Part shown: piece after piece, positions 41,243 to 58,070 of the stretch
Position numbering within the stretch: the first letter of the stretch is position 1
How the letters are laid out: each line of letters opens with the position of its first letter
Assembly (NCBI GenBank): GCA_027307325.1
Contig: DAHUXE010000057.1
Coordinates: forward strand, 1 to 58,070
DNA from: Gammaproteobacteria bacterium
Lineage (GTDB): Bacteria > Pseudomonadota > Gammaproteobacteria > Steroidobacterales > Steroidobacteraceae
Direction of reading: 5' to 3'
DNA: 58,070 bases
Notes under the pieces: generated by a model
What the model was told of the DNA's origin: nothing
Database searches by the model: none
Seen by the model: the letters and a program-made list of their open reading frames with translations, nothing else
Position numbers and translations under genes: made by a program

Positions 41243-41266
41243 TCATGAACAGCGCCGCGCAGATGA

Positions 41267-42005: not shown

Positions 42006-42026
42006 GGTGAGTTCCCTCCCTGAAAC

Positions 42027-42189: not shown

Positions 42190-42205
42190 ATCGACCGAGC
42201 GGCAG

Positions 42206-44529: not shown

Positions 44530-44590
44530 CAGCCTGCTCACGACGACGGCCCCCGGACCATGCGCGGTACGCTCGAGCGCAGGCCGGGCA

Positions 44591-44994: not shown

Positions 44995-45720
44995 GGCACC
45001 GAGGACATAGAGCGTCCACGGCGGGATCCGGGTCTCGCTCACCCATTGAACCGGCTCCGCGCCGGTCGCCAGTGGCCTGACGGCGTCGACGACGCGCAGC
45101 CCGGCGGCCTCGAAGAGCTCCCGGTAGCGCGTATCGCTGCACAGGACATCGATCACCGGACGACGGTCCGGCACGTCCAGCATGACGATCCGAACCGCGT
45201 CACCGTCGCGGGCAGCGCGGTTGTCAGGGTAATCACGGGTGCTGAAGGACGCCCACTCGTGGCAGTAGATGGCGGGTGAGGACACTACGGCGAGGAGGCG
45301 ACCGCCTGGAGTGACGAGGAGACGCCGAAGCTCCCGCAGCGCGGAGGTCTTTTCCCGGTCGGTCGGGATGTTGTCGAAAGTAAACGCTGCAAGGACCAGA
45401 TCGAGCGTGCCGGTGCCGAATGGAGCGAGGGTACCGTCGGCAACCAGGCGATAGTCCCCCTGCGGGTCGCGGCCACGGGCCTGCTCGAGCATGAGCTCCG
45501 AGACGTCCACGCCGACCGCTTCGAAGGCCAGGTCCCGCAGGAACCTGGTCGAGCGCCCCGTGCCGCAGCCAAAGTCCAGGGCTCGCGTGCCGCGCACGTG
45601 CTTGCGCAGGAGCGCGGGAATATCGCGAAACGCCAGGTAATACGTGCCCGGGAATTCGAGCTCCGCGTAGGCCCGCGCGCGATCGGCATCGTCGTAGACG
45701 TTGCTGAAGGTCTCTGTCAT
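44989..45720 (-). CDS. Class I SAM-dependent methyltransferase
   Basis: Start at MTETFSNVYDD; motif I LDFGCGTGRST. Confidence 0.8.
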   Translation of the reverse strand: MTETFSNVYDDADRARAYAELEFPGTYYLAFRDIPALLRKHVRGTRALDFGCGTGRSTRFLRDLAFEAVGVDVSELMLEQARGRDPQGDYRLVADGTLAPFGTGTLDLVLAAFTFDNIPTDREKTSALRELRRLLVTPGGRLLAVVSSPAIYCHEWASFSTRDYPDNRAARDGDAVRIVMLDVPDRRPVIDVLCSDTRYRELFEAAGLRVVDAVRPLATGAEPVQWVSETRIPPWTLYVLGAA

Positions 45721-45744
45721 CCGCAGTGCCCCCGCCAACACTTC

Positions 45745-46215
45745 TCAGACCGCCTGCTCGAGCGGCGTCCACCGTTGTTCGCGTCTCCCGAGGCGCTCGC
45801 CCAGGCCTTCGGCATCGTAATCCGCCAGTACCGCCGCGGGGAGCTCCGTCGGGCGCGGCGTCATCGCCCGCGTATTGATGATGCCAAAGGCGCCGCGAGG
45901 AATCTCAATTTGCGCGCCGATGTAGACACCGCAAGCGCTGCATACCAGGAAGTCCGCAGTCTTCAGGCCGAAACGATATCGCCGCAGTGACTCCCCACGC
46001 TCGACGCGAAACGTCAGCCGCCCACCCGGATCGGAGGTGGTGACCGCGCCGTGGGCGCGACAGAACCGACACTGACAGGCGCGGACACTCCACTGCGCTA
46101 CCGGCAGCTTCGTGTGAAAGGCAAAGCCCAGTGCGCCGCAGTGACAGCTGCCGGCAAAGGTATGCGGGGCTGCTAGATGATCCACCGTGGCACCTTGGCT
46201 CGGTATGCTTCCCAT
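45745..46215 (-). CDS. GFA (glutathione-dependent formaldehyde-activating/CENP-V) family protein
   Basis: Cys clusters CHCG, CQCRFC, CSACG; start uncertain because it overlaps the upstream gene's end. Confidence 0.65.
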   Translation of the reverse strand: MGSIPSQGATVDHLAAPHTFAGSCHCGALGFAFHTKLPVAQWSVRACQCRFCRAHGAVTTSDPGGRLTFRVERGESLRRYRFGLKTADFLVCSACGVYIGAQIEIPRGAFGIINTRAMTPRPTELPAAVLADYDAEGLGERLGRREQRWTPLEQAV

Positions 46216-46622
46216 TCCGCTCCGAACTTGCCGGCCGCCCAGGGCTCTTCTGCCACCAGAACCCTTAGGTGAACCGCAGCCATCACCACCAGCGTATAGA
46301 TGAGCAGGGCGCGCGAGCCCCAAAGCACACTCCAGCCGATCAGAATCGTAACCACGGCCACGTACATCGGGTTGCGAGAGAGCCGATAGGGTCCGGTGGT
46401 CACCAGTTGTCTGGGCGGAGCCCACGGCGCCAGCGTCCCGCGCCCCGCCACGTAGAATTCGCGCACGCACCACAGCAGCAGCAGCGTTCCCAGGCAAACG
46501 ATCGCGATGCCGCTGGCCCCATGTTGCACGGGGCGACCCGCTGAAGTCCCGATCGCGATCGGCGCTGCGAAAGCGACCACGCCTGGCAGTGCGACAAACG
46601 CGGCGATGGCACGGATCAGCAT
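46173..46622 (-). CDS. Isoprenylcysteine carboxyl / phospholipid methyltransferase-family membrane protein
   Basis: Start at MLIRAIAAFVAL; LVTTGPYRLSRNPMYVAV motif. Confidence 0.7.
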   Translation of the reverse strand: MLIRAIAAFVALPGVVAFAAPIAIGTSAGRPVQHGASGIAIVCLGTLLLLWCVREFYVAGRGTLAPWAPPRQLVTTGPYRLSRNPMYVAVVTILIGWSVLWGSRALLIYTLVVMAAVHLRVLVAEEPWAAGKFGAEWEAYRAKVPRWII

Positions 46623-46645
46623 TCGAATTTCAGGACGACCGAGCG

Positions 46646-46924
46646 CTACCTCGCGGGCATGACGTGTCCCGCCGCTTCGGGCTCCAGGCGTACCCACTTA
46701 CCCTTGCGTCGGGCCATCAGGTAGCCCGTGACGGTCGGCTGCGCACCGAGTCTGGTCAGTTGCGAGTTGGCTCCCGTCACGACGAAGCCCGCCTCTGCCG
46801 TCAGCGGAATCCACGCATCGGCGGCGACACCTTCGGGCCGTGCGCCATCGGGATGTGCAGACGCGAGAGACAACGCGAGCGCCAGCACTAAGCCAGCCAC
46901 GGCAAAACCTGCTGTCCGCTTCAT
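46646..46924 (-). CDS. Hypothetical secreted protein
   Basis: Start at MKRTAGFAVAGLVLALALSLASA (signal peptide); 92 aa. Confidence 0.45.
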   Translation of the reverse strand: MKRTAGFAVAGLVLALALSLASAHPDGARPEGVAADAWIPLTAEAGFVVTGANSQLTRLGAQPTVTGYLMARRKGKWVRLEPEAAGHVMPAR

Positions 46925-46994
46925 GTGCGAAGCTCCATGGGGGTGATCAGCACAACGACCTTGTCTCGCGTGAGAGAGCACGGGGCCACCGCTA

Positions 46995-47255
46995 CTACAC
47001 CTGATCATCCGGGGGTTCTTTCGTGGCCAGGTACGTCAGCTCAGCGTCCGACACCTGCGCTTCTGAGAGCAACCGTCGCGCTCGGTGCAGCAGCTCCGAC
47101 GGCACGACAACCGAAAAGAACAAGCCCAGGCCGGGCAGATGCTCGTCAGAGACGATCCGAGCCGGCACATCACCCTGCGCGAGAAGGCCGAGTACGGCCT
47201 CCGCCGAAATGCGGTCGGGGTGCGTGACAACTTCGCTCCAATCGTCAACCGGCAC
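46995..47255 (-). CDS. DUF2007-like (putative signal-transducing) small protein
   Basis: 86 aa; resemblance is from memory only. Confidence 0.5.
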   Translation of the reverse strand: MPVDDWSEVVTHPDRISAEAVLGLLAQGDVPARIVSDEHLPGLGLFFSVVVPSELLHRARRLLSEAQVSDAELTYLATKEPPDDQV

Positions 47256-47290
47256 TGAACTGCTCCCCTGCTCTCTGACGACGAGGTCGG

Positions 47291-47671
47291 CTAGCGCGGT
47301 GCGTCTTTGAGCTCAACCGCATAGTAGTGCGCCTCGGTCTTGCCAACGTTCTCCCCCGAATGGGTAACGGCATCGCGCCATAGCACATCCCCGGCGTGCG
47401 ACGGGTACGCAACGACGGCGCCGCTCGGCAGAGTTGTCCTTACGATCGCGTCAGCGAGCGCGAAAACGACCCCCGGCGGGTGCGAATGCATGGGCTCTTT
47501 CCCACCTGGCTTCAGGCGGTACTCCAGCACTCTGACACGATCATTTTCGAAGCGCACCGAGTAAAGCTGCGGAGACAGGGCGACCGGATCAAGCGTCGGT
47601 GCCGACTCGGCAACTGCAGCCACTATCGCGGCGCAAGCAGCGCCGAGCGTGAAGTCTCTCAAGCGAACCAT
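47291..47671 (-). CDS. Secreted cupin-domain protein
   Basis: Start at MVRLRDFTLGAACAAIVA; cupin motif PMHSHPPGVVF...H. Confidence 0.7.
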   Translation of the reverse strand: MVRLRDFTLGAACAAIVAAVAESAPTLDPVALSPQLYSVRFENDRVRVLEYRLKPGGKEPMHSHPPGVVFALADAIVRTTLPSGAVVAYPSHAGDVLWRDAVTHSGENVGKTEAHYYAVELKDAPR

Positions 47672-47716
47672 GAAATGTGCCCTCCCGCAAAGATGCACGA
47701 GCTACATCGAGCAGAC

Positions 47717-47822
47717 GCCTGACGGTGGAGCCGTCTCATTGATCCGACGGCGTACGCACCGTCCCCCGGTATGGCCCTGCTGCCCAATCACGCATCACGG
47801 CCCTCTCCAGCGATCATCAGGC
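47717..47822 (-). repeat. Decayed attC of the array family (cores mutated: GCCTGAC ... ATCAGGC)
   Basis: Left arm gcctgacggtggag matches gcctaacggtgaag at 12 of 14 positions; right arm cgcatcacggccctctccagcgatcatcaggc matches the consensus at about 28 of 32; the DUF1272 gene's stop lies in the core. Confidence 0.7.
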
Positions 47823-48065
47823 AGCATCCGCACAGCCTGCGGGCTTCACGACGCGTTCAGTCGACGCGGGATATCGCGAGAGCTTGTCGGCAGGACGGCG
47901 CGGCCGAGCCATGAGCTCCCCGCCACAGTTCGGGCATACACCCTTCAGGACCTGTTCCGCACAGGACCGGCAAAAGGTGCACTCAAGAGAGCAAATGAAC
48001 GCGTCCGAAGACTGCGGCGGAAGGTCTCGATCGCAACATTCGCAGTTTGGTCTAAGTTGAAGCAT
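47817..48065 (-). CDS. DUF1272-family zinc-ribbon protein
   Basis: Start at MLQLRPNCECCDRDLPP; multiple CxxC pairs. Confidence 0.75.
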   Translation of the reverse strand: MLQLRPNCECCDRDLPPQSSDAFICSLECTFCRSCAEQVLKGVCPNCGGELMARPRRPADKLSRYPASTERVVKPAGCADAA

Positions 48066-48121
48066 TGCGTTTACTCCAGATGCAGGTGGCACCACGGCCA
48101 ATTTCCCAATGGCCTGTAGAG

Positions 48122-48937
48122 CTAATGGATGCGCTGCGCAAGCTGCGTAAAGTGCGCCGAGAGCTCCGCGATGTTCGATGGAATGGCATGCTTATGAGGC
48201 GTGTACCCGGGCAGCATCGTGCGCGCACGCATGCCAAGACGGCTGGTCGCAATCAGTGCCCTCTGCCTCACGGTGATGCGGCAACGCACGCCGTGTCGGG
48301 CCACGTCGGCCGACGACATGAGCCCCGCGCAATCGGCGATGAACCGGAACATGTGATGTTGGGAAACCCAGCACATGCGTGCCCGATAGAGATAGTCACC
48401 ATACAGGTGCTCATAGACATCGAAAGCGACGTTGCGATGCTCGACCTCCTCAAGCATGTGCCACTTGAACAGATCACCAACCGCGCGCACGGTATGGCGA
48501 TGGTCATACAGGCCGCTCGCGAGGGTGCGCAGCGCGAACTGGGTAGTGAAGGACTCAAAGCCCTCGATATAGCCGATCCGGAACCGATCGCTCCTGTTGC
48601 CCAGGAACCCCTCGAAGTCCCGCCTTAGCATCTCGACGCGCTGTTCCAGCCCAGGATAGCCGTGCCTGAAGACGGCCTTGTTGAAATCCATATGGCGCCT
48701 GTAGTGCTGGGCCTCCTGACGTGAGAAGCGATCGGCGTCCTCACGGAGCGCCTCATCGCGGATCTGGTCCATCACTCGGCGTAATGACTTGACGAAGAAC
48801 GGCTCCAAGTACGCTACGTACAACCCGGTCGCCAGCAGGGTGTAGGACAGTACCGAGCTTCCTGCGACGCACAGTGGGTGAAATTCGTCCGCACTGGGCA
48901 CGGCGAACTTCATCTCTCGCACGGTGATCGGGTGCAT
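48122..48937 (-). CDS. Predicted metal-dependent hydrolase (DUF2236/PF10118-like)
   Basis: Start taken at the second Met (MHPITVREMKF); EAQHYRRH and EEVEHRNVAFDVYEH motifs; the longer ORF to 49021 would run into a degenerate attC. Confidence 0.65.
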   Translation of the reverse strand: MHPITVREMKFAVPSADEFHPLCVAGSSVLSYTLLATGLYVAYLEPFFVKSLRRVMDQIRDEALREDADRFSRQEAQHYRRHMDFNKAVFRHGYPGLEQRVEMLRRDFEGFLGNRSDRFRIGYIEGFESFTTQFALRTLASGLYDHRHTVRAVGDLFKWHMLEEVEHRNVAFDVYEHLYGDYLYRARMCWVSQHHMFRFIADCAGLMSSADVARHGVRCRITVRQRALIATSRLGMRARTMLPGYTPHKHAIPSNIAELSAHFTQLAQRIH

Positions 48938-49007
48938 GGCGCTCCCGGGATTTCCCGACGCGGCACTACACAGGGGAGTAAGAGTAGTGGCAGCGAAGTC
49001 TGCGCGT

Positions 49008-49120
49008 GCGGTAGCGGTCATGCAAGCGGGCCCCTTGAGCCGAGTCAGATCCCGCTCACACGCTGGGGACCCGAGGCGCCCGCCCGCAGAGGCGTCACGC
49101 GCCCAAAACGATTGTTGGCG
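49008..49120 (-). repeat. Degenerate attC (terminal or decayed)
   Basis: The right half cccgaggcgcccgcccgcagaggcgtcacgcgcccaaaacgattGTTGGCG aligns well with attCs 55056-55177 and 57362-57555; the left half (ggtagcggtcatgcaagcgggcccc) matches only weakly. Confidence 0.45.
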
Positions 49121-49132
49121 CGCATGGGTTCC

Positions 49133-49250
49133 GCCTAACGGTGACGGGCCGGCCGACCACGTGTCATAGGGCCGTGGGCCCGCAATATCGACCGGATCTT
49201 ACTGCGCCCAACCACCGGCGCATCAGGTCCCCTCCAATTGACTGTCAGAG
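49133..49250 (-). repeat. attC site (118 bp)
   Basis: GCCTAAC-ggtga...ccaattgact-GTCAGAG; the centre matches the 'cccgcaatatcgac' subfamily. Confidence 0.85.
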
Positions 49251-49394
49251 CGTATTGCCCTTCCGACGTTGGCGCCAGCGGTAGATCGCATAACCAACAA
49301 TTGAAGCCGGCACGCCGTAGCTGGACCAAACCATCGTTGCCACGAGATCCCATCCCAGGGGTGCCTCGGCGCTGGGGTGAAGAAGTGGTGACAT
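49245..49394 (-). CDS. Possible 49-aa membrane peptide (cassette ORF below the ORF-track size cutoff)
   Basis: My translation: MSPLLHPSAEAPLGWDLVATMVWSSYGVPASIVGYAIYRWRQRRKGNTL; the TGA stop lies in the attC core. Confidence 0.25.
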   Translation of the reverse strand: MSPLLHPSAEAPLGWDLVATMVWSSYGVPASIVGYAIYRWRQRRKGNTL

Positions 49395-49400
49395 GAGTGC

Positions 49401-49538
49401 CTACGCCAGAATGTACGAGACCAAGACAGGGGCGACTAACGCCAGGCACAGTCCCAAAGGCATTAACCGAAGCCGACCGCAGAGGTAGCCCGCGAGGATT
49501 GAAGCTGCACAGACGATGGCGATGCCAGCTGGGAACAT
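49401..49538 (-). CDS. Possible 45-aa two-TM peptide (cassette ORF below the ORF-track size cutoff)
   Basis: My translation: MFPAGIAIVCAASILAGYLCGRLRLMPLGLCLALVAPVLVSYILA; the ATG is 5 nt from the attC core. Confidence 0.3.
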   Translation of the reverse strand: MFPAGIAIVCAASILAGYLCGRLRLMPLGLCLALVAPVLVSYILA

Positions 49539-49543
49539 AGGCG

Positions 49544-49668
49544 CTCTAACGGTGAGGCTGAGGGGCCGGCCGACCACGCCAAACAGGGGCCGCGGGCCCG
49601 CAATCTCGACTGGGTCCCGCCGCGTCCAACCAACAGCACATCACGGCCCCCTCCAATGCCCGTTAGGC
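49544..49668 (-). repeat. attC site (125 bp)
   Basis: CTCTAAC-ggtgaggctgaggggccg...catcacggccccctccaatgccc-GTTAGGC. Confidence 0.9.
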
Positions 49669-49685
49669 GTTCGACCCACTCAGCT

Positions 49686-49973
49686 TCACCTTATTCCCGG
49701 GCGATGCGCCAGAAACACGGCCAAAGCGAAGAGCAGAAGGAAGAGCCAGCCCATCGCAGCAATGGCGATACCCGGAGTATGGGAGTCGATCTGATACCCC
49801 CGGTACCAGGCACCGAACGTTAGGTCATCAATCTGCTGAGGAAACCAAATCAGAGTGAGCAGCGGACCACAAACCAGCGTCACGATCCAAAATCCGTTGG
49901 GGATCGACCACGCACGTACGTACGCCACCGCGACGACGATGAGAGACAGTACGCGCGAAAGGCTGATCGTCAT
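49686..49973 (-). CDS. Cassette: hypothetical 3-TM membrane protein
   Basis: 95-aa ORF filling the interval between two attCs; ATG 5 nt from the core. Confidence 0.6.
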   Translation of the reverse strand: MTISLSRVLSLIVVAVAYVRAWSIPNGFWIVTLVCGPLLTLIWFPQQIDDLTFGAWYRGYQIDSHTPGIAIAAMGWLFLLLFALAVFLAHRPGIR

Positions 49974-49978
49974 CGAGC

Positions 49979-50066
49979 GTCCAACGGTGAAGTTGCGGGG
50001 CCGGACGACGGTCCCGCGGCCCCAAACAGACCACGCCTCACGGCCCCCTCCTCACTAGTGTCGCCT
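49979..50066 (-). repeat. attC site, short variant (~88 bp) with a degenerate distal core
   Basis: GTCCAAC-ggtgaagttgcggggccg...cctcacggccccctcctcactaGTGTCGC. Confidence 0.7.
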
Positions 50067-50390
50067 CTCTGCGCGTTTATGCGCCTCGGTCAGTGCGGCA
50101 ATTACCTGAGAGAGCGTCAGAATGTCGCGTTGAACCTCGCGCTCCGTGTGAGGAAAGACTGCGGCCTCAACCTCAGGATGCTTCGAGTCATGCGCCGCGT
50201 CTGTTACAGGGCCACGCCACGAATGCGAAATCGTGTCCTGAAAGTAGTAGACGACCGATGCCGGATCATCATCGGGAAAGATATTCGTGCCGACGTAGAT
50301 CATTGGCTGTACGCCCGGAATAGTGAGGCCCTCATCCGCGAAGGTAAGGCGGTAGTAAGCAGTGCCCTCTTTAAGTTGTGCAGGCGCCAT
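50055..50390 (-). CDS. Cassette: hypothetical soluble protein
   Basis: 111-aa ORF between attCs; no recognised family. Confidence 0.6.
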   Translation of the reverse strand: MAPAQLKEGTAYYRLTFADEGLTIPGVQPMIYVGTNIFPDDDPASVVYYFQDTISHSWRGPVTDAAHDSKHPEVEAAVFPHTEREVQRDILTLSQVIAALTEAHKRAERRH

Positions 50391-50397
50391 GAGTGCG

Positions 50398-50522
50398 TTC
50401 TAACGGTGAAGTTGAGGGGCCGGCCGACCACGTGTCACAGGCGCGGCGGGCCGGCAATATCGGCTGGGACCCACCGCGCCTGACCACTTACGCATCACGG
50501 CTCCCCTCGACGATGGTCAGGT
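50398..50522 (-). repeat. attC site (125 bp)
   Basis: TTCTAAC-ggtgaagttgaggggccg...gcatcacggctcccctcgacgatg-GTCAGGT. Confidence 0.9.
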
Positions 50523-50834
50523 GACGCGCCCAAGCTGGCGCTCCCGTAGATACAGAAACAGCGGAAAGCCGCAGCTGACGCCAATCAAGCAAGTAGCCGC
50601 TACAGGCAGCCAGAGCATACCGATCTTACGCCGCCTCCCTTCACTGAAGATGAAAACGAGCAGGACCAGAGCGGAAACGATTGCGTCCAATCCAAAGAAT
50701 GCGCTGACGTGGCCGAGAAACAATTGCGTGAAGAGCAAGCGAACGTTCAGGCCGTGCTCGACGAGCCATGGGACGAACTGGGAGTACGGCAGAAGGGTGC
50801 CAAGAACAGCGAGCAAGAGGTACAGCCAGCGCAT
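50517..50834 (-). CDS. Cassette: DUF2834-like small membrane protein
   Basis: Start at MRWLYLLLAVLGTLLPYSQFVPWLVEHGL, with its own GAGGTG Shine-Dalgarno sequence; 105 aa. Confidence 0.65.
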   Translation of the reverse strand: MRWLYLLLAVLGTLLPYSQFVPWLVEHGLNVRLLFTQLFLGHVSAFFGLDAIVSALVLLVFIFSEGRRRKIGMLWLPVAATCLIGVSCGFPLFLYLRERQLGRVT

Positions 50835-50885
50835 GGGAAACACCTCAGCGACAAATTGAACGGCGGCTTCACCGCAAAGCGCGGC

Positions 50886-50991
50886 ACCTGACGGTGAAGT
50901 TGACAGGCGGCACGAGCACGTGTCCAGGGCTGCGCGGGCCCGCGGCCCCAAACAGACCACGCATTACGCCCCACCGCAACGATTGTCAGCG
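50886..50991 (-). repeat. attC site (106 bp)
   Basis: ACCTGAC-ggtgaagttgacaggcgg...gcattacgccccaccgcaacgatt-GTCAGCG. Confidence 0.8.
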
Positions 50992-51345
50992 CCCACGGCA
51001 CCCGCTTGCTGTCTGCTTCCTAAGGAGCGCTTGGGTGAGATAGCAAACGCCATACTGCGCCAGGGTAGTGAAGGTGAGCGCCACGGCAAGTCGCATGCGT
51101 AGCAAATGCACAACGCGAGCGCTGGCAGCGGTGGTTGCTGGTGAAGGCTGTGCAATGCCAATCCCAATCAGAACTTGCGAGAACCAGAAGATTGCAGCCG
51201 CCGCGACGATCAACGCAACTGTGAGGCTGACCATAAAGAAGCGGGACGAGCGCGCAACACCACCTGGCCATAGAAAGTGATAGATAAACGGAACCGCCAG
51301 TGTGCACACGAGGATGACGAGCGGACCCTTGACGACGAAGAACAC
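50986..51345 (-). CDS. Cassette: hypothetical 4-TM membrane protein
   Basis: 119-aa ORF with GTG start, between attCs. Confidence 0.55.
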   Translation of the reverse strand: MFFVVKGPLVILVCTLAVPFIYHFLWPGGVARSSRFFMVSLTVALIVAAAAIFWFSQVLIGIGIAQPSPATTAASARVVHLLRMRLAVALTFTTLAQYGVCYLTQALLRKQTASGCRGR

Positions 51346-51358
51346 CAGGATTCGTGGG

Positions 51359-51483
51359 CTCTAACGGTGAACTTGAGGGACCGCGCGACCACGTGTCACA
51401 GGCGCGGCGGGTCCGCAATATCCACCGGGTCCCGCCGCACCCAACCACCAGCGCATCACGGCCCCCTCCAACGACTGTTAGAC
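51359..51483 (-). repeat. attC site (125 bp)
   Basis: CTCTAAC-ggtgaacttgagggaccg...gcatcacggccccctccaacgact-GTTAGAC. Confidence 0.9.
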
Positions 51484-51498
51484 AGCATGTGCATATCG

Positions 51499-51801
51499 CT
51501 AGTGATTCCCGAACGCGTACAAGAACCACCAGGAGTAGACAAAGCCGGCGATGGCAGCGCAACAGCCACTAAGTATGAGCTTCCAAGTGCGGGCGGCGAG
51601 AATCACATAAAGGAGACCAAAGCAGCCGCCGATAAGAGCAATGCGTCCGCTCCAGAACATCAAGAGCTCAATCGTGCGCACGGTGACCACGGTGAATAGA
51701 TACAGCGAAAAAGTCGACCAAAGCGTTGCACCCCAAGCGATCCAAAGCATCACGGCGGCGTAGCGTCGGCTACTAGCGTGAATCGCGAAGAGGGTGGTCA
51801 T
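51499..51801 (-). CDS. Cassette: hypothetical 3-TM membrane protein
   Basis: Start at MTTLFAIHASS, 3 nt from the attC core; 100 aa. Confidence 0.6.
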   Translation of the reverse strand: MTTLFAIHASSRRYAAVMLWIAWGATLWSTFSLYLFTVVTVRTIELLMFWSGRIALIGGCFGLLYVILAARTWKLILSGCCAAIAGFVYSWWFLYAFGNH

Positions 51802-51804
51802 GCT

Positions 51805-51910
51805 GTCTAACGGTGAAGTTGAGGGGCCGCACGCAGGCCGACGGCGCACTGAGCAAGTGAGCGCCGCCCCTCGTGCTGCCTCTCACGGACTGCTCCAACG
51901 ATTGTTAGAG
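51805..51910 (-). repeat. attC site (106 bp)
   Basis: GTCTAAC-ggtgaagttgaggggccg...ctcacggactgctccaacgatt-GTTAGAG. Confidence 0.85.
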
Positions 51911-51911
51911 G

Positions 51912-52337
51912 CTACGCCCCAGAGACAATCGCGATTCCAAACCACGTCCATAGCGCAAATAGCAGCACCGTACTTGCTACGTAAACGATGAAACGGTGCA
52001 TCACATTATTGTAAGTGCAGTGAATCGCGCTGTGTACCGCGCGGAGCGCCACAAAGAGCCAACACCCCCCAAGAACGAGCGCGCCCTGCCGCTGAGTCGC
52101 GTACAAAGCCAGACAAAACGCATAAAACAGCACCGGAACTTCGAACAAGTTGCGAAAATTGTCAGCCGCGGTCACGTCCTGCAGTACGCCCGCCGCCTGT
52201 CGTGAGGTGGCAAGGTCGCCAGGCGGAATCCGACGACGTCGCATCTCGCCTATGCGCTGAATATAGAGCCGGCCCCAAACCACTGCGGTGATCGCAATCA
52301 TGCCGACGACGGGAAGCAGCGGGTGTCCGAGGAACAT
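51912..52337 (-). CDS. Cassette: MAPEG-family membrane protein
   Basis: Start at MFLGHPLLPVVG; 141 aa; NLFEVPVLFYAF motif; second MAPEG gene in the window. Confidence 0.7.
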   Translation of the reverse strand: MFLGHPLLPVVGMIAITAVVWGRLYIQRIGEMRRRRIPPGDLATSRQAAGVLQDVTAADNFRNLFEVPVLFYAFCLALYATQRQGALVLGGCWLFVALRAVHSAIHCTYNNVMHRFIVYVASTVLLFALWTWFGIAIVSGA

Positions 52338-52357
52338 AGGAAGTGCTCTCGCGTAGC

Positions 52358-52477
52358 CTCTAACGGTGAAGGTGAGGGGCCGGGCCCCCGCGCCAGCCGG
52401 GCGACGCGGGCGGAAACTGTCCCCAGGCGTCCGCGGCAATCAGACCGCGCCTCACGGCCCCCGAACGATTGTCAGGC
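52358..52477 (-). repeat. attC site (120 bp)
   Basis: CTCTAAC-ggtgaaggtgaggggccg...cctcacggcccccgaacgatt-GTCAGGC. Confidence 0.85.
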
Positions 52478-53011
52478 CCCGCGCACACGGATGCGCAAGA
52501 CCCAGCGATCGTGATCTGCCTCGTGTTCGTTGACGTACTCACCGCTCTCAATGATCCAGGATGCGTGATCGTGCGCCAAGTGCGCGTGCGACGAATGGCT
52601 GTAGACCTCGTAACGAAACGCTCCCCTCTCAAAACCCATCAAGTACACCTCGTCGGGAGTGGCTGAAAACGCTACGGTGAAAAATGGTGTCGGCGGATGA
52701 CGAGGAAAGGGTCCCAACGGCGGTAGCAGCCAGAAAGCAATGTGGTACACGATCGGTTGAAACTCGTAGGAGAACTGCCCACCTACGATGCGTACGATTA
52801 CCGTACGGTCGCTGTTGCCAAATTCTTCAGGCTTATTCATCACGAGGTCGAGCCCCCCCAAGCCGTAGGATTTGGGAAGCGTGACCTGGATTGAGTCGAG
52901 CGGCTTGCCGGAAACGATTGCGCCAGAAATACCGATTCGCCCAAGGGAGCTTCCCGGGACCGCGCAGCTAGCCAGAAGCATTGAGCCAAGTAACGCGACA
53001 AGGTGTTTCAT
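52472..53011 (-). CDS. Cassette: hypothetical lipoprotein
   Basis: Start at MKHLVALLGSMLLASC (lipobox LLASC); 179 aa; His-rich C-terminal third. Confidence 0.65.
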   Translation of the reverse strand: MKHLVALLGSMLLASCAVPGSSLGRIGISGAIVSGKPLDSIQVTLPKSYGLGGLDLVMNKPEEFGNSDRTVIVRIVGGQFSYEFQPIVYHIAFWLLPPLGPFPRHPPTPFFTVAFSATPDEVYLMGFERGAFRYEVYSHSSHAHLAHDHASWIIESGEYVNEHEADHDRWVLRIRVRGA

Positions 53012-53015
53012 CGGG

Positions 53016-53139
53016 GCCCAACGGTGAGGCTGGGGGCGGGCCGGCCACGTGTCAGGGGCGCGACGGGCCCGCAATTTCGACTGGGGCCCGCCGCGCCTAA
53101 CCACCCACGCATCACGGACCCTTCCAACGATTGTTAGGC
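53016..53139 (-). repeat. attC site (124 bp)
   Basis: GCCCAAC-ggtgaggctgggggcggg...gcatcacggacccttccaacgatt-GTTAGGC. Confidence 0.9.
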
Positions 53140-53580
53140 ATCATGCAGCCCGCGACGAAAGTAGACCACGCGCTCGGTTTCCTCAAACCCCAGCGCTCGG
53201 TGAGCGGCGTGTGCCACAGAATTGTCAAGCAGCGAGTCGGATGCAAGTTCACTGCAGCCCTCCGCCAAAGCCCATTGCACGACAGATTGGACGAGGGCGC
53301 GCGCTACGCCCTGGCGCCGGGACGCCGGCACGACGTAAAGACCCTCGAGAAAAGCCACCGGAGAGCTGCTTGTGCCGTTGACGTAGTCCACCCGCTTCGA
53401 AGCCTCAATTAAGCCTACAGCCGCTCCGCGGGCGGTCACCGCGAGGCGCACGTAATGACCACGCGCGAGTGCGTCAGCCATTCCTGATAGTTGTTCCGCT
53501 ATCGGTGCGTCCGGCCACAAGGCAGATCGCAGCGCCAGCCACGCACCGTCACTACTGCCTTGGGGCGCCCTGAGCTGCAT
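53134..53580 (-). CDS. Cassette: GNAT acetyltransferase resembling aminoglycoside 6'-N-acetyltransferase type I
   Basis: Start at MQLRAPQG; 148 aa. WLALRSALWPD, VDYVNGTSSSPVAFLEGLYVVP..RRQGVA and ALGFEETERVVYFR align with my recollection of AAC(6')-Iaa/Iy. Confidence 0.7.
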   Translation of the reverse strand: MQLRAPQGSSDGAWLALRSALWPDAPIAEQLSGMADALARGHYVRLAVTARGAAVGLIEASKRVDYVNGTSSSPVAFLEGLYVVPASRRQGVARALVQSVVQWALAEGCSELASDSLLDNSVAHAAHRALGFEETERVVYFRRGLHDA

Positions 53581-53583
53581 GAT

Positions 53584-53708
53584 GCCTAACGGTGAAGCTG
53601 AGGGACCGGCCGACCACCCCGGCCAGGCGACGCGGGCGCACACTGTCTTCTAGCGCCCGCGGAGCCAAGCAGACCACGCCTCACGGACCCCGCCTACGAT
53701 TGTTAGAG
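53584..53708 (-). repeat. attC site (125 bp)
   Basis: GCCTAAC-ggtgaagctgagggaccg...cctcacggaccccgcctacgatt-GTTAGAG; the centre is near-identical to that of attC 56944-57064. Confidence 0.9.
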
Positions 53709-53758
53709 GTCAGCCCCGGCAGCGGAGTCACCTTTAGATCTCCATCTTGCGGATCACG

Positions 53759-54265
53759 TTAGTCGGCGGGCCGGGCAAATAGGAACCGAGCCACCAATAC
53801 GGTCGAAATTCCCAACAGAACGACCAGACCAAGGAAAAACACGCCTGATCCTGGGCCGACGATACCGAATGCTGCAAGTAGTTCAACTGCAGCCATAGCG
53901 CACAGTATGGCTGTAACTGTGGACACCACCACAGCGTTCAAAACGGCGCGTTCGGGACGCGACAGTCGATAGACACCGCTTAGCACCAGCAGTACGCCTC
54001 CCAAAGTCGCTATCGCGAGTATTAGAAGCGAAACTTGCCAAACCTTTGATTCTGGCAACGAGAAAAACGCTAGCACAAAGGGCATAAGCGACAGAAATAC
54101 CGATTGGAAGGTGAACGCGAGGATGTTCCGGATTCGGAACGCATCGACAGGTGTCCACTGATGGGGTTTACCGCTTAAGGCAACCAAGATTGCAGAGAAG
54201 CCAGCGAGACCGATGGCAAGCTGCGCAAAAATCAGCAGAGCACTTGCAACGTCGATGACAAACAC
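53759..54265 (-). CDS. Cassette: hypothetical 5-TM membrane protein
   Basis: 168-aa ORF with GTG start; hydrophobic throughout. Confidence 0.6.
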   Translation of the reverse strand: MFVIDVASALLIFAQLAIGLAGFSAILVALSGKPHQWTPVDAFRIRNILAFTFQSVFLSLMPFVLAFFSLPESKVWQVSLLILAIATLGGVLLVLSGVYRLSRPERAVLNAVVVSTVTAILCAMAAVELLAAFGIVGPGSGVFFLGLVVLLGISTVLVARFLFARPAD

Positions 54266-54338
54266 GCCCGTCGACTAAAAGTAGCTCATGTTCGTCGCCG
54301 AAGCCAAACCGGAGCGCCGGAGTCGAGCAACGGCTGAC

Positions 54339-54513
54339 CTCTAACGGTGAGGCGCTGGCCGACCATCTGTCCGGCCCCCCCCGAGCCCGCAATCTCCACT
54401 GGGTCCCGCGGCGCCCCAGTGCCGCCGATCAGCCGCCGAGGGTGCACAATCCCTTCCCGCGCCCGAGGCGCCGCGCCGCAGTCGCATCACGGCCCCCTCC
54501 AACGATTGTTAGA
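54339..54513 (-). repeat. attC site, long composite variant (175 bp)
   Basis: CTCTAAC-ggtgaggcg...; the centre contains both the 'cccgcaatctccactgggtcccgc' module and the 'cgcccgaggcgcc' module; ends gcatcacggccccctccaacgatt-GTTAGAC. Confidence 0.85.
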
Positions 54514-55050
54514 CGGCACTTGGATGCGCGCATACACAGCCGTGTCGCGCGGTGGTCCACCGATGTTGGGTCGTACGGTTGCCATTCGCATCACGCCCTC
54601 GAGTTGCAGCCCAAGTCGCTCAAGTAGACGTCTCGATCTGATGTTGTCAGCGTCGACAGTGGCCCAGATCCGAACGATTTCAGGTTGGGTAGCAAGCCAG
54701 CTTAGAACCGCGGAGGCCGCCTCACGAGCCATTCCCTTGCCCCAGTAATCGCGAGCCAGGAAGTAACCGAAGTCAACTGCGTGGCCCTTAGGTCGGCATG
54801 AAATGCTCCCGGCACACTTTCCACTGTGGCGCTCCAGGATGATCCACTGATATTCGGAACCTGTCTCCCAAGCGCCAGACAACTTCTCGAGATGCGCTTC
54901 CGTGTCTCTTGGGTCAGTTGGCATCGGCCAGTCCATGAAGCGCATCACTTCCGGATCGCGCGCCGCCAGATAAAGCGCTTGAGCGTCGGTCGGCCTTGCG
55001 CGTCGAAGCTTAATGAGGTCTCCGTCAATTGTGTCAGGCGGTGGTTGCAT
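54487..55050 (-). CDS. Cassette: GNAT N-acetyltransferase (RimJ/RimL-like)
   Basis: Start at MQPPPDTIDGDLIKLRRARPTDAQAL; 187 aa; the last ~7 codons (NNRWRGP) are encoded by the attC. Confidence 0.8.
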   Translation of the reverse strand: MQPPPDTIDGDLIKLRRARPTDAQALYLAARDPEVMRFMDWPMPTDPRDTEAHLEKLSGAWETGSEYQWIILERHSGKCAGSISCRPKGHAVDFGYFLARDYWGKGMAREAASAVLSWLATQPEIVRIWATVDADNIRSRRLLERLGLQLEGVMRMATVRPNIGGPPRDTAVYARIQVPSNNRWRGP

Positions 55051-55055
55051 GTGCC

Positions 55056-55177
55056 GTCTAACGGTGAAGTTGAGCGGCCGCGCAGAAGCGCCCGATGGCG
55101 CCGAGTGCGCGCGCTGTCTCAGCGCTCGAGGCGCCAAGCCCCAAGCACATCACAGATCTCTCCAACGATTGTTGGAC
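55056..55177 (-). repeat. attC site (122 bp)
   Basis: GTCTAAC-ggtgaagttgagcggccg...cacatcacagatctctccaacgatt-GTTGGAC; carries two copies of the 9-mer that is expanded in attC 57362-57555. Confidence 0.9.
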
Positions 55178-55183
55178 AACACG

Positions 55184-55603
55184 TTAACCACCGCGGCTAG
55201 CATCATAAGTTTTAACCAGCGTTTTCGTAGCAACCAATCGCCATGCACGCTCTATGAGGCTCGGCAACTCACGCGCTTCAACGGCAGAGAACCGCATCAA
55301 GACCCAAGGATAGTCTCGGTAATGATCCGTAATGAAGAACGCGCTAGGTGCGGCCTGCATCAGAATCTGGCGATCGAGAAAGTCCGCTCGAAGCACGAGG
55401 CAGTCAATGCTTTGATGTAGCCGGGCGAGCAGCTTGCCGCGAACTTTAAGGGCCGGCGTCCCGTATGAAGTGCCATCCTCGACTCCAGGGAATCTGAAAG
55501 CAATCGTGCGTACCTGTTCGAAAGTTACGCCAGCTGATGCTGGCCGATAGCGCGGCGTTATGCGCTTCGGGGAGGGAGCCAGCCGCTTGCGCCGAGGTTT
55601 CAC
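55184..55603 (-). CDS. Cassette: MmcQ/YjbR-like protein
   Basis: GTG start 5 nt from the core; FPGVEDGTSYGTPALKVRGKLLARL and HYRDYPWVLMRF resemble the YjbR family (from memory). Confidence 0.5.
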   Translation of the reverse strand: MKPRRKRLAPSPKRITPRYRPASAGVTFEQVRTIAFRFPGVEDGTSYGTPALKVRGKLLARLHQSIDCLVLRADFLDRQILMQAAPSAFFITDHYRDYPWVLMRFSAVEARELPSLIERAWRLVATKTLVKTYDASRGG

Positions 55604-55608
55604 GTGTT

Positions 55609-55660
55609 GTCTAACGGTGAAGGTGAGGGGCGGCGCGACCACGCGTCGCGCGATTAAGCA
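55609..55660 (-). repeat. Short or truncated attC (~52 bp)
   Basis: GTCTAAC-ggtgaaggtgaggggcgg-cgcgaccacgcgtcgcgcgat-TAAGCAG; good left arm, abbreviated right arm. Confidence 0.5.
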
Positions 55661-56187
55661 GGAACGTACGTCACCCGAATCAAGTCATCGGCGATCAAAT
55701 CGCTGGCCACCAGGTGCAGCGGCGGCCGGGGGCCGGCGAAAAATGGCTTGCCACCACCCAGCACGACGGGGCGGAGGTAGAGTCGATACTCATCGATAAG
55801 ACCGGCTTCGCTCAGGCTTTGCGCCAGGACTGGTCCAGCAACTTGAATCTCGCCAGCCAGCTCGGCCTTCAGCCTGCGTATCACCTTCTCGACGTCATCC
55901 GCGACAAGCGTCGAGTTGGGGCCAACTGACTTGAGGGAACGCGACATGACCCACTTCGGCTGGCTCCGCCACACCACCGCGAACTCGCGATCCTCCGCGT
56001 CCCAATCAGGAAGATCTTCGTCCCAATAACGCATGATCTCGTACGTGCGGCGACCGTAAATGAGGCCCGTCGCGCCGCGCACCAGCCTGATGAAGTGACG
56101 GAAGGCCGCGGGTGCAGGCGGCCCAAGCTTCATGTGGTCGACGTAGCCATCAAGGGACTGGCTCAATCCGTAGACAAGTCTTGCCAC
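55654..56187 (-). CDS. Cassette: dihydrofolate-reductase-family (RibD C-terminal domain) protein
   Basis: 177 aa; GTG start preceded by GGGAGGGAG; LSQSLDGYV...GRRTYE...YRLYLRPVVLGGGKPFF is typical of the RibD_C/YyaP-like family. Confidence 0.75.
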   Translation of the reverse strand: MARLVYGLSQSLDGYVDHMKLGPPAPAAFRHFIRLVRGATGLIYGRRTYEIMRYWDEDLPDWDAEDREFAVVWRSQPKWVMSRSLKSVGPNSTLVADDVEKVIRRLKAELAGEIQVAGPVLAQSLSEAGLIDEYRLYLRPVVLGGGKPFFAGPRPPLHLVASDLIADDLIRVTYVPA

Positions 56188-56443
56188 GCTGTAAGTCTCC
56201 CTCCCACACTCTTCAGAATAGCGTGAGCCGACGTCACGCTGAGGTAAGGTTGAACACTACCTGTGCGGCGCATTGTCGATGTGACCAATAACCACAGTTC
56301 CACTTCCCAATCCCGAGATTCAAACTGAGACACTACGCGCAATTCGGACCTTGAGTTTAGGCGAGATGGCTGAGCTCGCATATTGCCCTCGCGTTTGTGC
56401 GAACACGAGCGCTCTACGAAGAGTTGGGGCCGACAACCATGAC

Positions 56444-56568
56444 ATCTAACGGTGAAGTTGAGGCGCCGGTCGATCACGTGTCACAGGCGCGGCGGGCCCG
56501 CAATTTCGACTGGGTCCCGCCGCGCCCAACCACCAGCGCATCACGGCCCCCTCCAACGATTGTTAGGC
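56444..56568 (-). repeat. attC site (125 bp)
   Basis: ATCTAAC-ggtgaagttgaggcgccg...gcatcacggccccctccaacgatt-GTTAGGC. Confidence 0.9.
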
Positions 56569-56572
56569 CGCA

Positions 56573-56938
56573 CTAGCGAACTCTGAGCAAAGAGACGAGA
56601 AGCGGACCAGCACTGCCATTAACAACTACCTCTTTCGAAGCATAGCCGTCGGCGGAAACAACTACGGTGCCGCGAGGAGGAAGTGATCTGTAAGGGGCGA
56701 GCCAGAAGATATGTGTCGTGCGCGTAGTGGGCGCTAAGGAGAATCGTCCGTCGGAGTTCGTTTGCGCGAATAACCCTGGCTGGTCGTCCACCGAGATTGT
56801 AGCTCCCTGAATGGGCTTTTTAGTGGCGGCGTCAACCACCGTGCCCGACGCAGAGGGCGAAACATACGTGGTTATCTCGATGCAGCCGCTGAGCGACATA
56901 AGAAACGAGAGAGATAGCGTGTAGCGCCATTTGCTCAT
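56573..56938 (-). CDS. Cassette: lipoprotein with carboxypeptidase-regulatory-like domain
   Basis: Start at MSKWRYTLSLSFLMSLSGC (lipobox); GTVVDAATKKPIQGATISVD...TNSDGRFSL. Confidence 0.65.
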   Translation of the reverse strand: MSKWRYTLSLSFLMSLSGCIEITTYVSPSASGTVVDAATKKPIQGATISVDDQPGLFAQTNSDGRFSLAPTTRTTHIFWLAPYRSLPPRGTVVVSADGYASKEVVVNGSAGPLLVSLLRVR

Positions 56939-56943
56939 GTGCG

Positions 56944-57064
56944 GCCTAAGGGTGAAGCTGAGGGGCCGCACGACCACGCCGGCTAGGCGACGCGGGCGCA
57001 CACTGTCTTCCAGCGCCCGCGGCGACACTACTGAGCATCACGGACTCTCCAGCGATTGTTAGGC
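56944..57064 (-). repeat. attC site (121 bp)
   Basis: GCCTAAG-ggtgaagctgaggggccg...gcatcacggactctccagcgatt-GTTAGGC. Confidence 0.85.
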
Positions 57065-57355
57065 GGCAGCGGCATCGCCGAGCTCAACAACAGTCCCCGG
57101 AGGACAGAGTTCGGCGTAGAGCGTTGCCTCCCTTGGATCGCGCTCGTCGCACAGCAGTCCAACTAGTGACTCCGAGAACATTCGGTCGACAACCTCGACC
57201 GAAGCGATTTTGGCGGACCACGAGAGACCATCGGGTAGCTTGAAGTTGATGGTCTGCCCGGCGCGGGCGATGCCATCAAGGACGTGCCCGGCCAGGGCAA
57301 CCTTACGCCGTGCGGTGAAGCGAAGTACCTCGCGAACCTCAAATCGTGCGCCCAC
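57059..57355 (-). CDS. Cassette: hypothetical soluble protein
   Basis: 98-aa ORF with GTG start, between attCs. Confidence 0.5.
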   Translation of the reverse strand: MGARFEVREVLRFTARRKVALAGHVLDGIARAGQTINFKLPDGLSWSAKIASVEVVDRMFSESLVGLLCDERDPREATLYAELCPPGTVVELGDAAAA

Positions 57356-57361
57356 GCTGCC

Positions 57362-57555
57362 GCCTAACGGTGAAGTTGAGGGGCCGCACAGAAGCGCCCG
57401 ATGGCGCCGATGGCGCCGAGGGCGCCGATGGCGCCGAGGGCGCCGAGGGCGCCGATGGCGCCGAGGGCGCCGAGGGCGCCGAGGGCGCGCAATCTCTCAG
57501 CGCCCGAGGCGCCAATCCGCAAGCGCATCACGGAGCCCTCCAACGATTGTTAGGC
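57362..57555 (-). repeat. attC site, expanded variant (194 bp) containing a 9-bp tandem repeat
   Basis: GCCTAAC-ggtgaagttgaggggccg...[GAKGGCGCC]x10...gcatcacggagccctccaacgatt-GTTAGGC. Confidence 0.9.
57400..57489. repeat. Tandem 9-bp repeat GA(T/G)GGCGCC, 10 copies
   Basis: Counted directly; the T/G variant order is T,T,G,T,G,G,T,G,G,G and the last copy ends GCG; a degenerate copy gaagcgccc precedes it. Confidence 0.95.
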
Positions 57556-57974
57556 GGCATCGAAACCGAGGCGACGCGGCTCAGCATCACTACGTTCGCC
57601 AAGAGTAACGCGCCTGCCACAGCTTCAGTCCAAATCGTTAGATTCATCATCGCCGAGTGGTGCGTCATGGGCGCTCGAGTGTAGTGAAGAAGGCCCCCAA
57701 AACCGAGAGTCGCGTAGAAGCCCAAAACCGTCAGCCCGATAGTGCGCTGCCTGAGGCTATACAGCACGTAGCCGAGCAGGCCGATCGCCATCACACAGCA
57801 CCAAGCGGCGTAAACATCGGCTCGTGACCAGGACGGTGGCAGATGCGGATACTCAGCTAGGTACTCGGCATTGTGAGCGAAGTGCAGGAGAGTCGCCGCG
57901 GCGTACAAGACGAAGAGCCAAGGCAGTGTCTGGCTTTCGCGGTTGGTCTTGCGACCGAGGCTCACCAAAAACAC
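57528..57974 (-). CDS. Cassette: hypothetical 4-TM membrane protein
   Basis: 148-aa ORF; the exact start (GTG/TTG cluster at 57965-57974) is uncertain; the C-terminal NNRWRAP is encoded by the attC. Confidence 0.55.
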   Translation of the reverse strand: MFLVSLGRKTNRESQTLPWLFVLYAAATLLHFAHNAEYLAEYPHLPPSWSRADVYAAWCCVMAIGLLGYVLYSLRQRTIGLTVLGFYATLGFGGLLHYTRAPMTHHSAMMNLTIWTEAVAGALLLANVVMLSRVASVSMPPNNRWRAP

Positions 57975-57975
57975 C

Positions 57976-58070
57976 GCCTAACGGTGAAGTTGAGGGGCCG
58001 CACGATCACGCAAGACAGGCGCCGCCGGCCCACAATCTCTCGGCGCCCGAGGCGCCTAACCGCAAACGCT
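57976..58070 (-). repeat. attC site, partial (cut by window end)
   Basis: GCCTAAC-ggtgaagttgaggggccgcacg...cggcgcccgaggcgcctaaccgcaaacgct; same subfamily as 57362-57555. Confidence 0.8.

Follow-up and report, generated by a model that had tools for sequence, protein, structure and literature searches.

The right-hand end of contig DAHUXE010000057.1 carries a long run of imperfect palindromes and small genes, all in one orientation, which raises the question of whether it forms part of an integron and, if so, of which kind. The stretch analyzed, referred to here as the window, is 58,070 nucleotides (nt) long and comes from an uncultured soil gammaproteobacterium of high GC content (~70%), kin of metagenome-assembled genomes (MAGs) placed in the Steroidobacteraceae. 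An initial annotation, made from the letters of the DNA alone, had read the last 9 kb as a chromosomal array of gene cassettes separated by attC recombination sites. On its sequence features, the region 49133-58070 is very probably that section of a sedentary chromosomal integron which carries attC sites and lies distal to the integrase. By the same evidence the cassette array is genuine but ordinary: it agrees with attC sites in every sequence property that could be tested, it belongs to a type that is already known, the textbook kind of integron, and software of the IntegronFinder type would report such arrays.

The array is built from 17 same-strand copies of one palindromic repeat family: 14 complete copies, two truncated ones, and one that the end of the window cuts off. 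The left-arm motif YYNARSGGTGANGNNG, with one mismatch allowed, has 21 matches in the window against 4.1 expected, a number reached by none of 100 shuffles, and 17 of the 21 fall on the plus strand at 49134-57992; the right-arm motif recurs in like manner. Counted from the first base (N1) of the R' box, sites 1 to 17 start at 49133, 49544, 49979, 50398, 50886, 51359, 51805, 52358, 53016, 53584, 54339, 55056, 55609, 56444, 56944, 57362, and 57976. The 17 clear attC sites of the initial annotation are right as a total, although only 14 have both arms, since sites 3 and 13 are truncated and site 17 is cut, and sites 1 and 5 have degenerate cores. Its starting point of 49008 has to be given up, because 49008-49132 holds only a right-arm remnant (49065-49117), and its spacing of 300-650 nt is slightly too narrow for repeats that do recur, but at 411-756 nt.

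The 397 complete copies from the window and other genomes give the plus-strand consensus gtCTAAC GGTGAA GTTGAGGGGCCG ... TCACGG[a/c]CCCCT[C]CAAC GATT GTTAGac. Read from 5' to 3' on this strand, a copy comprises R' (YCTAA|C), the spacer GGTGAA, L' (GTTGAGGGGCCG), a variable stem-loop, L'' (CGG[A/C]CCCCT[C]CAAC), the spacer GATT, and R'' (GTTAGRC). The inverse core and core boxes, RYYYAAC and GTTRRRY, are present, and their AAC and GTT triplets are essentially invariant in the 397 sites; within the window both boxes are found in 14 sites, four of which have GTCAG variants. The arms are near-invariant and 357 of the 397 sites measure 120-129 nt. The 14 two-armed sites of the window span 106-194 nt, with 12 of them at 106-125 nt and sites 11 and 16 made longer by a second stem-loop and by expansion of a 9-nt repeat, respectively.

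When the arms are paired, the unpaired spacer sets GGTGAA opposite GATT, that is, 6 nt against 4 nt, and the L stem harbors two unpaired bases, both on the 3' arm of the plus strand, where L'' lies opposite its L' partner. The first bulged base is A in 258 and C in 104 of the 397 sites, the second is C, and the bulges are six pairs apart (N6) if the ambiguous C is set beside AAC. In attC bottom strands, bulges are found on the R''-L'' arm, with a 6-bp stem from the first to the last bulge and a spacer of ~5-6 nt (PMC5027507). By this bulge geometry, the plus strand would correspond to the attC bottom strand and the minus strand to the top strand, which agrees with the location of the genes on the minus strand. 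The attC site of aadA1 can serve as an illustration of a parallel geometry.

The structure was named by hand, as an R box, an L box with two bulges, and a 13-bp central stem, and was tested on a 45-site alignment, in which it pairs 87.3% of cells as against 36-43% with slid partners. In 11 pairs both partners change, none of 500 shuffles attains the covariation score, and compensatory changes are found both in the L box (pair 20-115, GC 28 and CG 6) and in the central stem. Naming by hand replaced RNAalifold, which returned only a spurious three-pair helix on the same alignment. Minimum-free-energy folds of single sites on both strands gave messy, alternative structures of no use for strand assignment, for which the arms were compared instead. 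A scan of the whole window against Rfam, which has no attC model, found no family. A hidden Markov model (HMM) of attC trained on 344 sites, all from other genomes, recovers 17 of 17 window sites on the plus strand, with E values of 1e-27 to 7e-5. Elsewhere in the window it finds two partial remnants adjoining the array, everything else being at chance level (E >0.4); an 11-nt left-arm-like match at 26739 was also set aside as chance.

Between them, the 17 repeats bound 16 intervals of small minus-strand genes, and the unit of the array is a promoterless gene followed by its own attC site. As first described, there is one minus-strand open reading frame (ORF) per interval, with two tiny ORFs in a single interval (49245-49538), and each ends with a stop codon that is either within the R'' core or no more than 51 nt away from it. 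Each cassette ORF starts a few bases from the next left-hand core. The lower GC content of the array, 0.58-0.63 compared with 0.65-0.74 in the backbone, had also been noticed correctly. Promoter-like and terminator-like sites occur in the array at or below shuffle expectation, as is expected for promoterless cassettes, and a tRNA scan found none.

The boundaries of the cassettes can be placed from the bases around the ORFs. Among 297 cassettes, the two outermost R' bases match as complements the R'' on the far side of the ORF in 71%, compared with 22% for the R'' of their own site and 17% for random partners. In the window they pair across the ORF in 12 of 14 cases and within their own site in four of 14, and eight window cassettes have fully complementary 7-mer ends, including the cassette c4, around which R'' of attC 4 (GTCAGGT) is complementary at 7/7 positions to R' of site 5 (ACCTGAC). 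Such pairing is the signature of crossover at G|TT and puts the predicted cassette boundaries inside R': with a crossover between the G and TT of R', the outer R' bases would travel with the downstream gene and its attC site. The boxes, the bulge geometry, the profile from foreign genomes, and this crossover signature all agree with the attC interpretation of the initial annotation.

Comparison of cassettes between genomes points the same way. The protein of cassette c14 is 93-97% identical in L072, L037, L058, L047, and L055 (L-numbers denote the 8-kb tiles fetched from other genomes); within the ORF c14 is 94-100% identical in four of five other arrays and 78-92% identical in L093, while identity is moderate in the flanking attC sites and random beyond them. 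Homologues of c3, c9, c12, c14, and c15 have an attC site within ~30 nt on both sides in every array that could be scored on both, for c4, c10, and c16 the majority of homologues have flanking attC sites within ~80 nt, and the order of cassettes differs between genomes. By these comparisons, the cassettes are shuffled between genomes.

The wider distribution of the family was obtained by scanning species-representative genomes with a 23-nt arm pattern, which gave 107 tiles from 49 assemblies, nearly all of them soil MAGs labelled Steroidobacteraceae or uncultured Gammaproteobacteria. None is the window's own genome, the best backbone identity being 82%. Exact look-ups with four cassette proteins and GpsA and an exact 40-mer search of metagenome contigs gave no match, and the 227 loci collected by pattern include none that is nearly identical to the window. 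The attC HMM finds 833 sites in the 107 loci, on one strand in 105 of them, and on contigs of 1.5-3.5 Mb exact-pattern matches occur in only one or two clusters. The family is abundant in metagenome contigs (at least 120 matches), and in 72,556 plasmids the repeat has no match, the gene of c13 being the only part of the array matched there. A search of the literature on integrons in Steroidobacteraceae and uncultured Gammaproteobacteria found nothing relevant, and this chromosomal integron family is large and apparently undescribed. Six contigs with attC sites of the family (L002, L071, L079, L092, L101, and L103) are binned to MAGs of Clostridia, Terriglobia, Verrucomicrobiia, Thermoanaerobaculia, Alphaproteobacteria, and Acidobacteria; five are only 2-4 kb long and L092 is 26.5 kb. 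Their placement is probably due to mis-binning of cassette arrays, with transfer across phyla as the alternative.

The integrase of the family is found in these relatives. A tblastn search with IntI1 identified full-length homologues of 51-55% identity in the relative loci. Against TIGR02249, 'integron integrase', for which the cut-off is 265 bits, the L059 protein reaches 430 bits; it keeps the catalytic residues, with equivalents of R146, K171, H277, R280, H303, and Y312, as well as the IntI-specific insertion. In 27 of the 49 assemblies, the fetched tiles contain exactly one IntI, beside the array. In all 26 integrase loci with detected sites, intI lies downstream of the pattern strand, on the same strand and divergent from the cassettes, so the intI of the window is predicted on the plus strand beyond 58070, at a distance that could, by analogy, reach ~30 kb. 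The initial annotation had proposed this position and orientation; side and strand hold throughout the relatives, and carry over to the window by analogy.

The closest genome, CAWDJK010000003.1 (tiles L059-L040-L106-L023-L047-L030), illustrates the complete arrangement. It has intI at one end of a ~40-kb array with a GC content of 0.60 and 72 detected attC sites, and at the distal end ~2 kb of attC-less sequence with a DUF1330 gene, followed by a gpsA homologue that matches the window at 34024-37473 with 82% identity. The shared gpsA-side end places the element at a conserved chromosomal site, and the window holds its distal end. Relatives carry 72-89 detected attC sites, and in seven of eight the attC score declines with distance from intI; in the window the scores climb toward the right (rho 0.49, p 0.055). 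In 13 of the 27 integrase loci, an nfeD-like and an SPFH/HflK-like gene in cassette orientation separate intI from the first cassette (L059:2679-4207), with 92-100% amino acid identity between genomes; L063 has its SPFH gene on the opposite flank of intI. The first cassette of L059 starts at GTTAGAC (4361-4367) and, with this gene pair in between, the apparent attI junction is ~1.7 kb from intI.

Several observations weigh against this assignment and have to be set beside it. The bulged bases are A or C and C, not the usual T and G, and sites 11 (176 nt) and 16 (194 nt) are longer than the quoted attC range of 57-141 nt. Searches by tblastn with IntI1 and with the IntI of a relative found no integrase in the 58-kb window, and no IntI was found in the fetched tiles of 22 of the 49 assemblies, a weak negative in that only exact-pattern tiles were fetched. 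The linkage of the window's own array to an intI is drawn by analogy only. With regard to the bulges, those of attC-dfrA1 are A and C (Larouche and Roy 2011, PMC3053210), and IntI2*179E and SonIntIA excise an A-N6-C attC site efficiently, IntI1 less so (PMC3053210). The present family resembles attC-dfrA1 in having A and C in place of T and G, but attC-dfrA1 is a short site of mobile integrons, whereas in the present case an entire chromosomal family has A/C-N6-C as its consensus.

The alternative that best survives is a cluster of attC sites lacking an integron integrase (CALIN) at its locus, produced by a split through rearrangement or by loss of intI, and mobilizable only in trans, if at all. 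Taken alone, the window resembles one, with at least two attC sites, no intI within reach, and cassettes unrelated to resistance genes; yet its 17 sites are cut by the window edge, and the array ends inside an attC site whose nearest neighbors are the best preserved of all (82-93 bits), which suggests that it is still running toward the predicted intI side. CALINs are common in genomes (Cury et al. 2016, PMC4889954), and 83% of them comprise at most five attC sites (PMC4889954). The eroded distal sites show that parts of the array are already decaying, and in several relatives attC clusters occur on multiple contigs or at multiple positions (CAWJIS, for instance, at three places), or the fetched tiles lack IntI. 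Set against this, the relatives include complete integrons, one IntI stands beside such arrays in the 27 assemblies, and the closest genome combines the same gpsA-side distal end with a complete ~40-kb integron. A CALIN is, on this balance, improbable, and by analogy with the relatives the array is highly likely to belong to a complete integron with intI attached.

The idea that the repeats are palindromic intergenic elements or terminators of the repetitive extragenic palindrome/bacterial interspersed mosaic element (REP/BIME) or miniature inverted-repeat transposable element (MITE) kind, spreading without an integrase, is refuted, even though the repeats are imperfect palindromes rich in GC and lie between genes, at the 3' ends of these: the scatter irrespective of gene orientation that the initial annotation had named as its sign was looked for and not found, the copies being clustered and, in 105 of 107 loci, uniform in strand, with the genes always on the opposite strand; in the remaining 49 kb of the window only the remnants adjoining the array occur; an integron integrase is adjacent in 27 assemblies; such spread cannot yield complementarity of cassette ends; and no terminator-like T tract is present, the terminator scan being at chance. 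The clustered, one-strand, and plasmid-free distribution points instead to a chromosomal, lineage-wide element.

For a sedentary chromosomal integron of this kind, the course of recombination may be proposed from the established integron mechanism. The bottom strand, when single-stranded, would fold into a hairpin that the IntI tyrosine recombinase would recognize through the two bulged bases, with cleavage between the A and C of R'. Cassettes would be excised as circles by attC x attC recombination and re-inserted at attI beside intI, where a promoter would drive their expression; integrase and attI would both be found beyond 58070. Orientation of the bottom strands relative to replication was considered and dropped, as the GC skew over 58 kb is too flat.

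The individual sites, all on the plus strand, differ widely in preservation. Site 1 (49133-49250) is degenerate, with R' GCCTAAC and R'' GTCAGAG (HMM 39.5 bits, E 2.8e-11), and site 2 (49544-49668) is complete at 125 nt (70.7 bits). Site 3 (49979-50051) is truncated to a left arm, a short centre, and CACGGCCCCCTCC, covering HMM positions 2-111 at 22.6 bits, and is probably inactive because the spacer and the R'' core are missing. Site 4 (50398-50522), complete with R'' GTCAGGT, is likewise recovered by the HMM, and site 5 (50886-50991) is a degenerate copy of 106 nt with the core GTCAGCG (33.3 bits). Complete copies follow as sites 6 (51359-51483, 125 nt, 80.3 bits), 7 (51805-51910, 106 nt and with a different centre, 54.8 bits), 8 (52358-52477, 120 nt, 66.6 bits), 9 (53016-53139, 124 nt, 66.0 bits), and 10 (53584-53708, 125 nt, 92.5 bits). 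Site 11 (54339-54514) belongs to a 'double-centre' subtype and has an eroded left L box (59.4 + 6.4 bits), and site 12 (55056-55177) is complete at 122 nt (92.8 bits). Site 13 (55609-55646) is a half site consisting of R', spacer, L', and the start of the centre only (HMM positions 2-37, 18.9 bits). Sites 14 (56444-56568, 125 nt, 92.1 bits) and 15 (56944-57064, 121 nt, R' GCCTAAG, 92.0 bits) are again complete, site 16 (57362-57555) has a centre expanded by a tandem repeat (82.4 bits), and site 17 (57976-58070), cut by the window end, covers HMM positions 2-96 at 61.1 bits.

Variation in the centre takes three forms across the family. The variable region of site 16 contains 10.1 copies of a 9-nt tandem repeat (CCGAGGGCG) at 57398-57488, an expansion seen in no other site of the family. 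The subtype of site 11 is recurrent, with two different tandem stem-loops in the variable region of sites of 176-182 nt; its relatives in L050 (197-378) and L082 (three sites) measure 181-182 nt. At least 10 attC sites of 159-190 nt from different genomes have in common a ~50-nt insert in the variable region (GGCCGC...GGTCGAACGAAGCTC...GCGGCC); its carriers include L017:6445-6617, L027, L037, L039, L053, L057, L079, L082, and L104.

The cassette genes, all on the minus strand, are mostly small and poorly characterized. The first unit, c1 (49245-49538), contains the two tiny hydrophobic ORFs, of 49 (49245-49394) and 45 (49401-49538) amino acids, which belong to no family and have no relatives in the fetched arrays. 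It is followed by c2 (49686-49973), a membrane-like orphan of 95 amino acids, and c3 (50055-50390), an orphan of 111 amino acids with attC-flanked homologues in L016 and L069. A DUF2834 membrane protein is encoded by c4 (50517-50834; PF11196, 6.3e-31), orphan membrane proteins of 119 and 100 amino acids by c5 (50986-51345) and c6 (51499-51801), a MAPEG family protein by c7 (51912-52337; PF01124, 1.1e-14), and a putative lipoprotein of 179 amino acids and no family by c8 (52472-53011). GNAT acetyltransferases are specified by c9 (53134-53580; PF00583, 6.4e-16), which has a cassette homologue in L087 at 90% identity, and by c11 (54487-55050; Acetyltransf_3, PF13302, 4.6e-32). Between them lies c10 (53759-54265), an orphan membrane protein of 168 amino acids with attC-flanked homologues in L087 and L067 and, in L105, an attC site close by on the one side that could be scored. 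The YjbR family protein of c12 (55184-55603; PF04237, 9.7e-09) is also a cassette in L075, L087, and L030. The unit c13 (55654-56444) consists of a RibD_C/dihydrofolate-reductase-family gene (55654-56187; PF01872, 3.3e-13) and 257 nt of upstream region. The array continues with c14 (56573-56938), a CarboxypepD_reg-like lipoprotein found as the same cassette in seven other arrays, c15 (57059-57355), an orphan of 98 amino acids that is a cassette in L074, and c16 (57528-57974), a membrane orphan of 148 amino acids.

The initial description of nearly all cassettes as orphans is roughly correct, but seven of the 17 ORFs carry Pfam families above the curated cut-off, namely GNAT (twice), DUF2834, MAPEG, YjbR, RibD_C, and CarboxypepD_reg. 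The remaining ORFs are small orphans, mostly hydrophobic. PADLOC found no defence match among the ten family-less cassette ORFs, and none of these roughly ten small orphans, mostly membrane proteins, is a recognizable defence or resistance gene. Two cassette genes, c11 and c16, lack a stop codon of their own; their ORFs run into the attC site (54487-54514 and 57528-57555) and end on an attC-encoded TGA, giving the attC-derived C-terminal tails ...NNRWRGP* and ...NNRWRAP*.

The unit c13 is atypical, in that it lacks its own attC site. Its gene and at least 118 nt upstream (55647-56305) are 77% identical at the nucleotide level to DNA of Rhizobiales chromids. This homology starts exactly 7 nt past the stop codon of c13, at 55647, where it abuts the middle of an attC site, so that at the junction 55646/55647 the half site attC 13 is fused to foreign DNA and its R''-L'' half is gone. 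The distal 139 nt of the 257-nt upstream region have no relatives among the fetched loci. Since the join lies inside the variable region and not at the R box, it points to illegitimate recombination rather than to the integrase. The genes c13 and c12 now sit together between two attC sites that are read as functional and, to judge from this arrangement, would move, if at all, as one two-gene unit. That c13 records how a new gene enters the integron cassette pool is an improbable reading.

To the left of the array, the element reaches ~11 kb further in a zone of ~20 genes without attC sites (38148-49021), all small, on the minus strand, and functionally unrelated, which are read as former cassettes. 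Two of them have Pfam support, a PF10118 hydrolase (48122-49021) and a DUF1272 gene (47817-48101). The other labels were read off the translations by inspection, not by family search: cupin-like (47291-47698), ICMT-like (46173-46697), GFA-like (45745-46212), methyltransferase (44989-45741), HIT (43682-44143), VOC-like (42879-43259), DUF1330-like (39773-40061), and alpha/beta-hydrolase (38987-39715), among others. Searches of 37.4-49.1 kb with the whole-site HMM, arm HMMs, and an inverted-repeat scan found no attC site beyond two right-arm remnants on the plus strand. One, at 49065-49117, lies 16 nt from attC 1 and upstream of the PF10118 gene (nhmmer E 0.04; arm HMM AACGATTGTTG); the other (CGCATCACGGCCCTCTCCA), at 47784-47820, lies between the cupin-like and DUF1272 genes (E 0.003; arm HMM E 0.029). 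Between gpsA and the first tail gene there is a plus-strand ORF of 203 amino acids (37515-38126) with no counterpart at that position in L030.

For at least 13 of the tail genes, other genomes contain homologues as attC-flanked cassettes, which are in cassette orientation without exception. In L031, where tail genes g3, g4, and g5 occur in the same order, a weak attC site is kept between g4 and g5, compared with 87 nt without one in the window. The tail of L105 is an attC-less cluster colinear with that of the window, and has the same GC gradient. In the window the GC content of the tail climbs stepwise from 0.60 (48122-48940) to 0.72-0.73 (38.5-41 kb), compared with 0.53-0.63 in active cassettes and 0.70-0.74 in the backbone. 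Every tail gene compared exceeds its attC-flanked homologues in GC content at third codon positions (GC3), 0.71-0.88 as against 0.60-0.74, and in overall GC content, with the exception that g14 ties in overall GC with one of four homologues; the GC3 of gpsA is 0.91. Erosion of attC increases leftwards, through sites 1, 3, and 5 and then the remnants at 49065 and 47784. The pattern is explained most economically if attC sites are eroded at the distal end and the cassettes left behind there ameliorate, ending as fixed genes of the chromosome beside gpsA. The reverse process, in which backbone genes are turning into cassettes, would account for the tail less parsimoniously.

Among known systems, the superintegrons of Vibrio are the closest in architecture. 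The V. cholerae superintegron, with its VCR attC sites, is a long chromosomal array, as are those of the present relatives, with at least 72 detected attC sites over ~40 kb. Shared with Vibrio are homogeneous attC sites of ~120-125 nt with a long structured variable region, small promoterless genes on one strand that are mostly uncharacterized, a single divergent intI, and cassettes of lower GC content than the host. In contrast, the attC sequence family here is unrelated, its bulges are A/C-N6-C and not T...G, and the spacer of the R'' arm is 4 nt and not 5. The host also differs, belonging to a soil lineage of 70% GC that is represented by MAGs alone; the array runs out into a long tail without attC sites, and the nfeD-SPFH pair stands between intI and the first cassette in 13 of the 27 integrase-bearing relatives. 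The chromosomal integrons of Xanthomonas, offered here only as a lead, reportedly also reside in a gammaproteobacterial host of soil or plants and have arrays with decayed elements, and are said to occupy a fixed chromosomal position beside the housekeeping gene ilvD. Here the distal end lies beside gpsA and not ilvD, and the integrases of the relatives are intact.

The features of this locus that go beyond the textbook are only the gradient of erosion and amelioration and the junction of c13. The origin of cassettes is a long-standing open question. If c13 does represent the entry of a gene into the cassette pool, and if illegitimate joins of this kind are regular, new genes could be taken up by exchange of the cargo within a cassette already in place; the tail without attC sites, with its gradient in GC, would then stand at the other end of this life cycle, where cassettes leave for the fixed chromosome. 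The succession from intact sites to eroded sites, to remnants, and to attC-less genes fits a conversion of distal cassettes into ordinary genes of the chromosome. The roughly ten small orphan cassette proteins are candidates for functional screens, and the array documents an integron family that extends across the lineage, in 49 species-level soil assemblies, and that is abundant in metagenomes.

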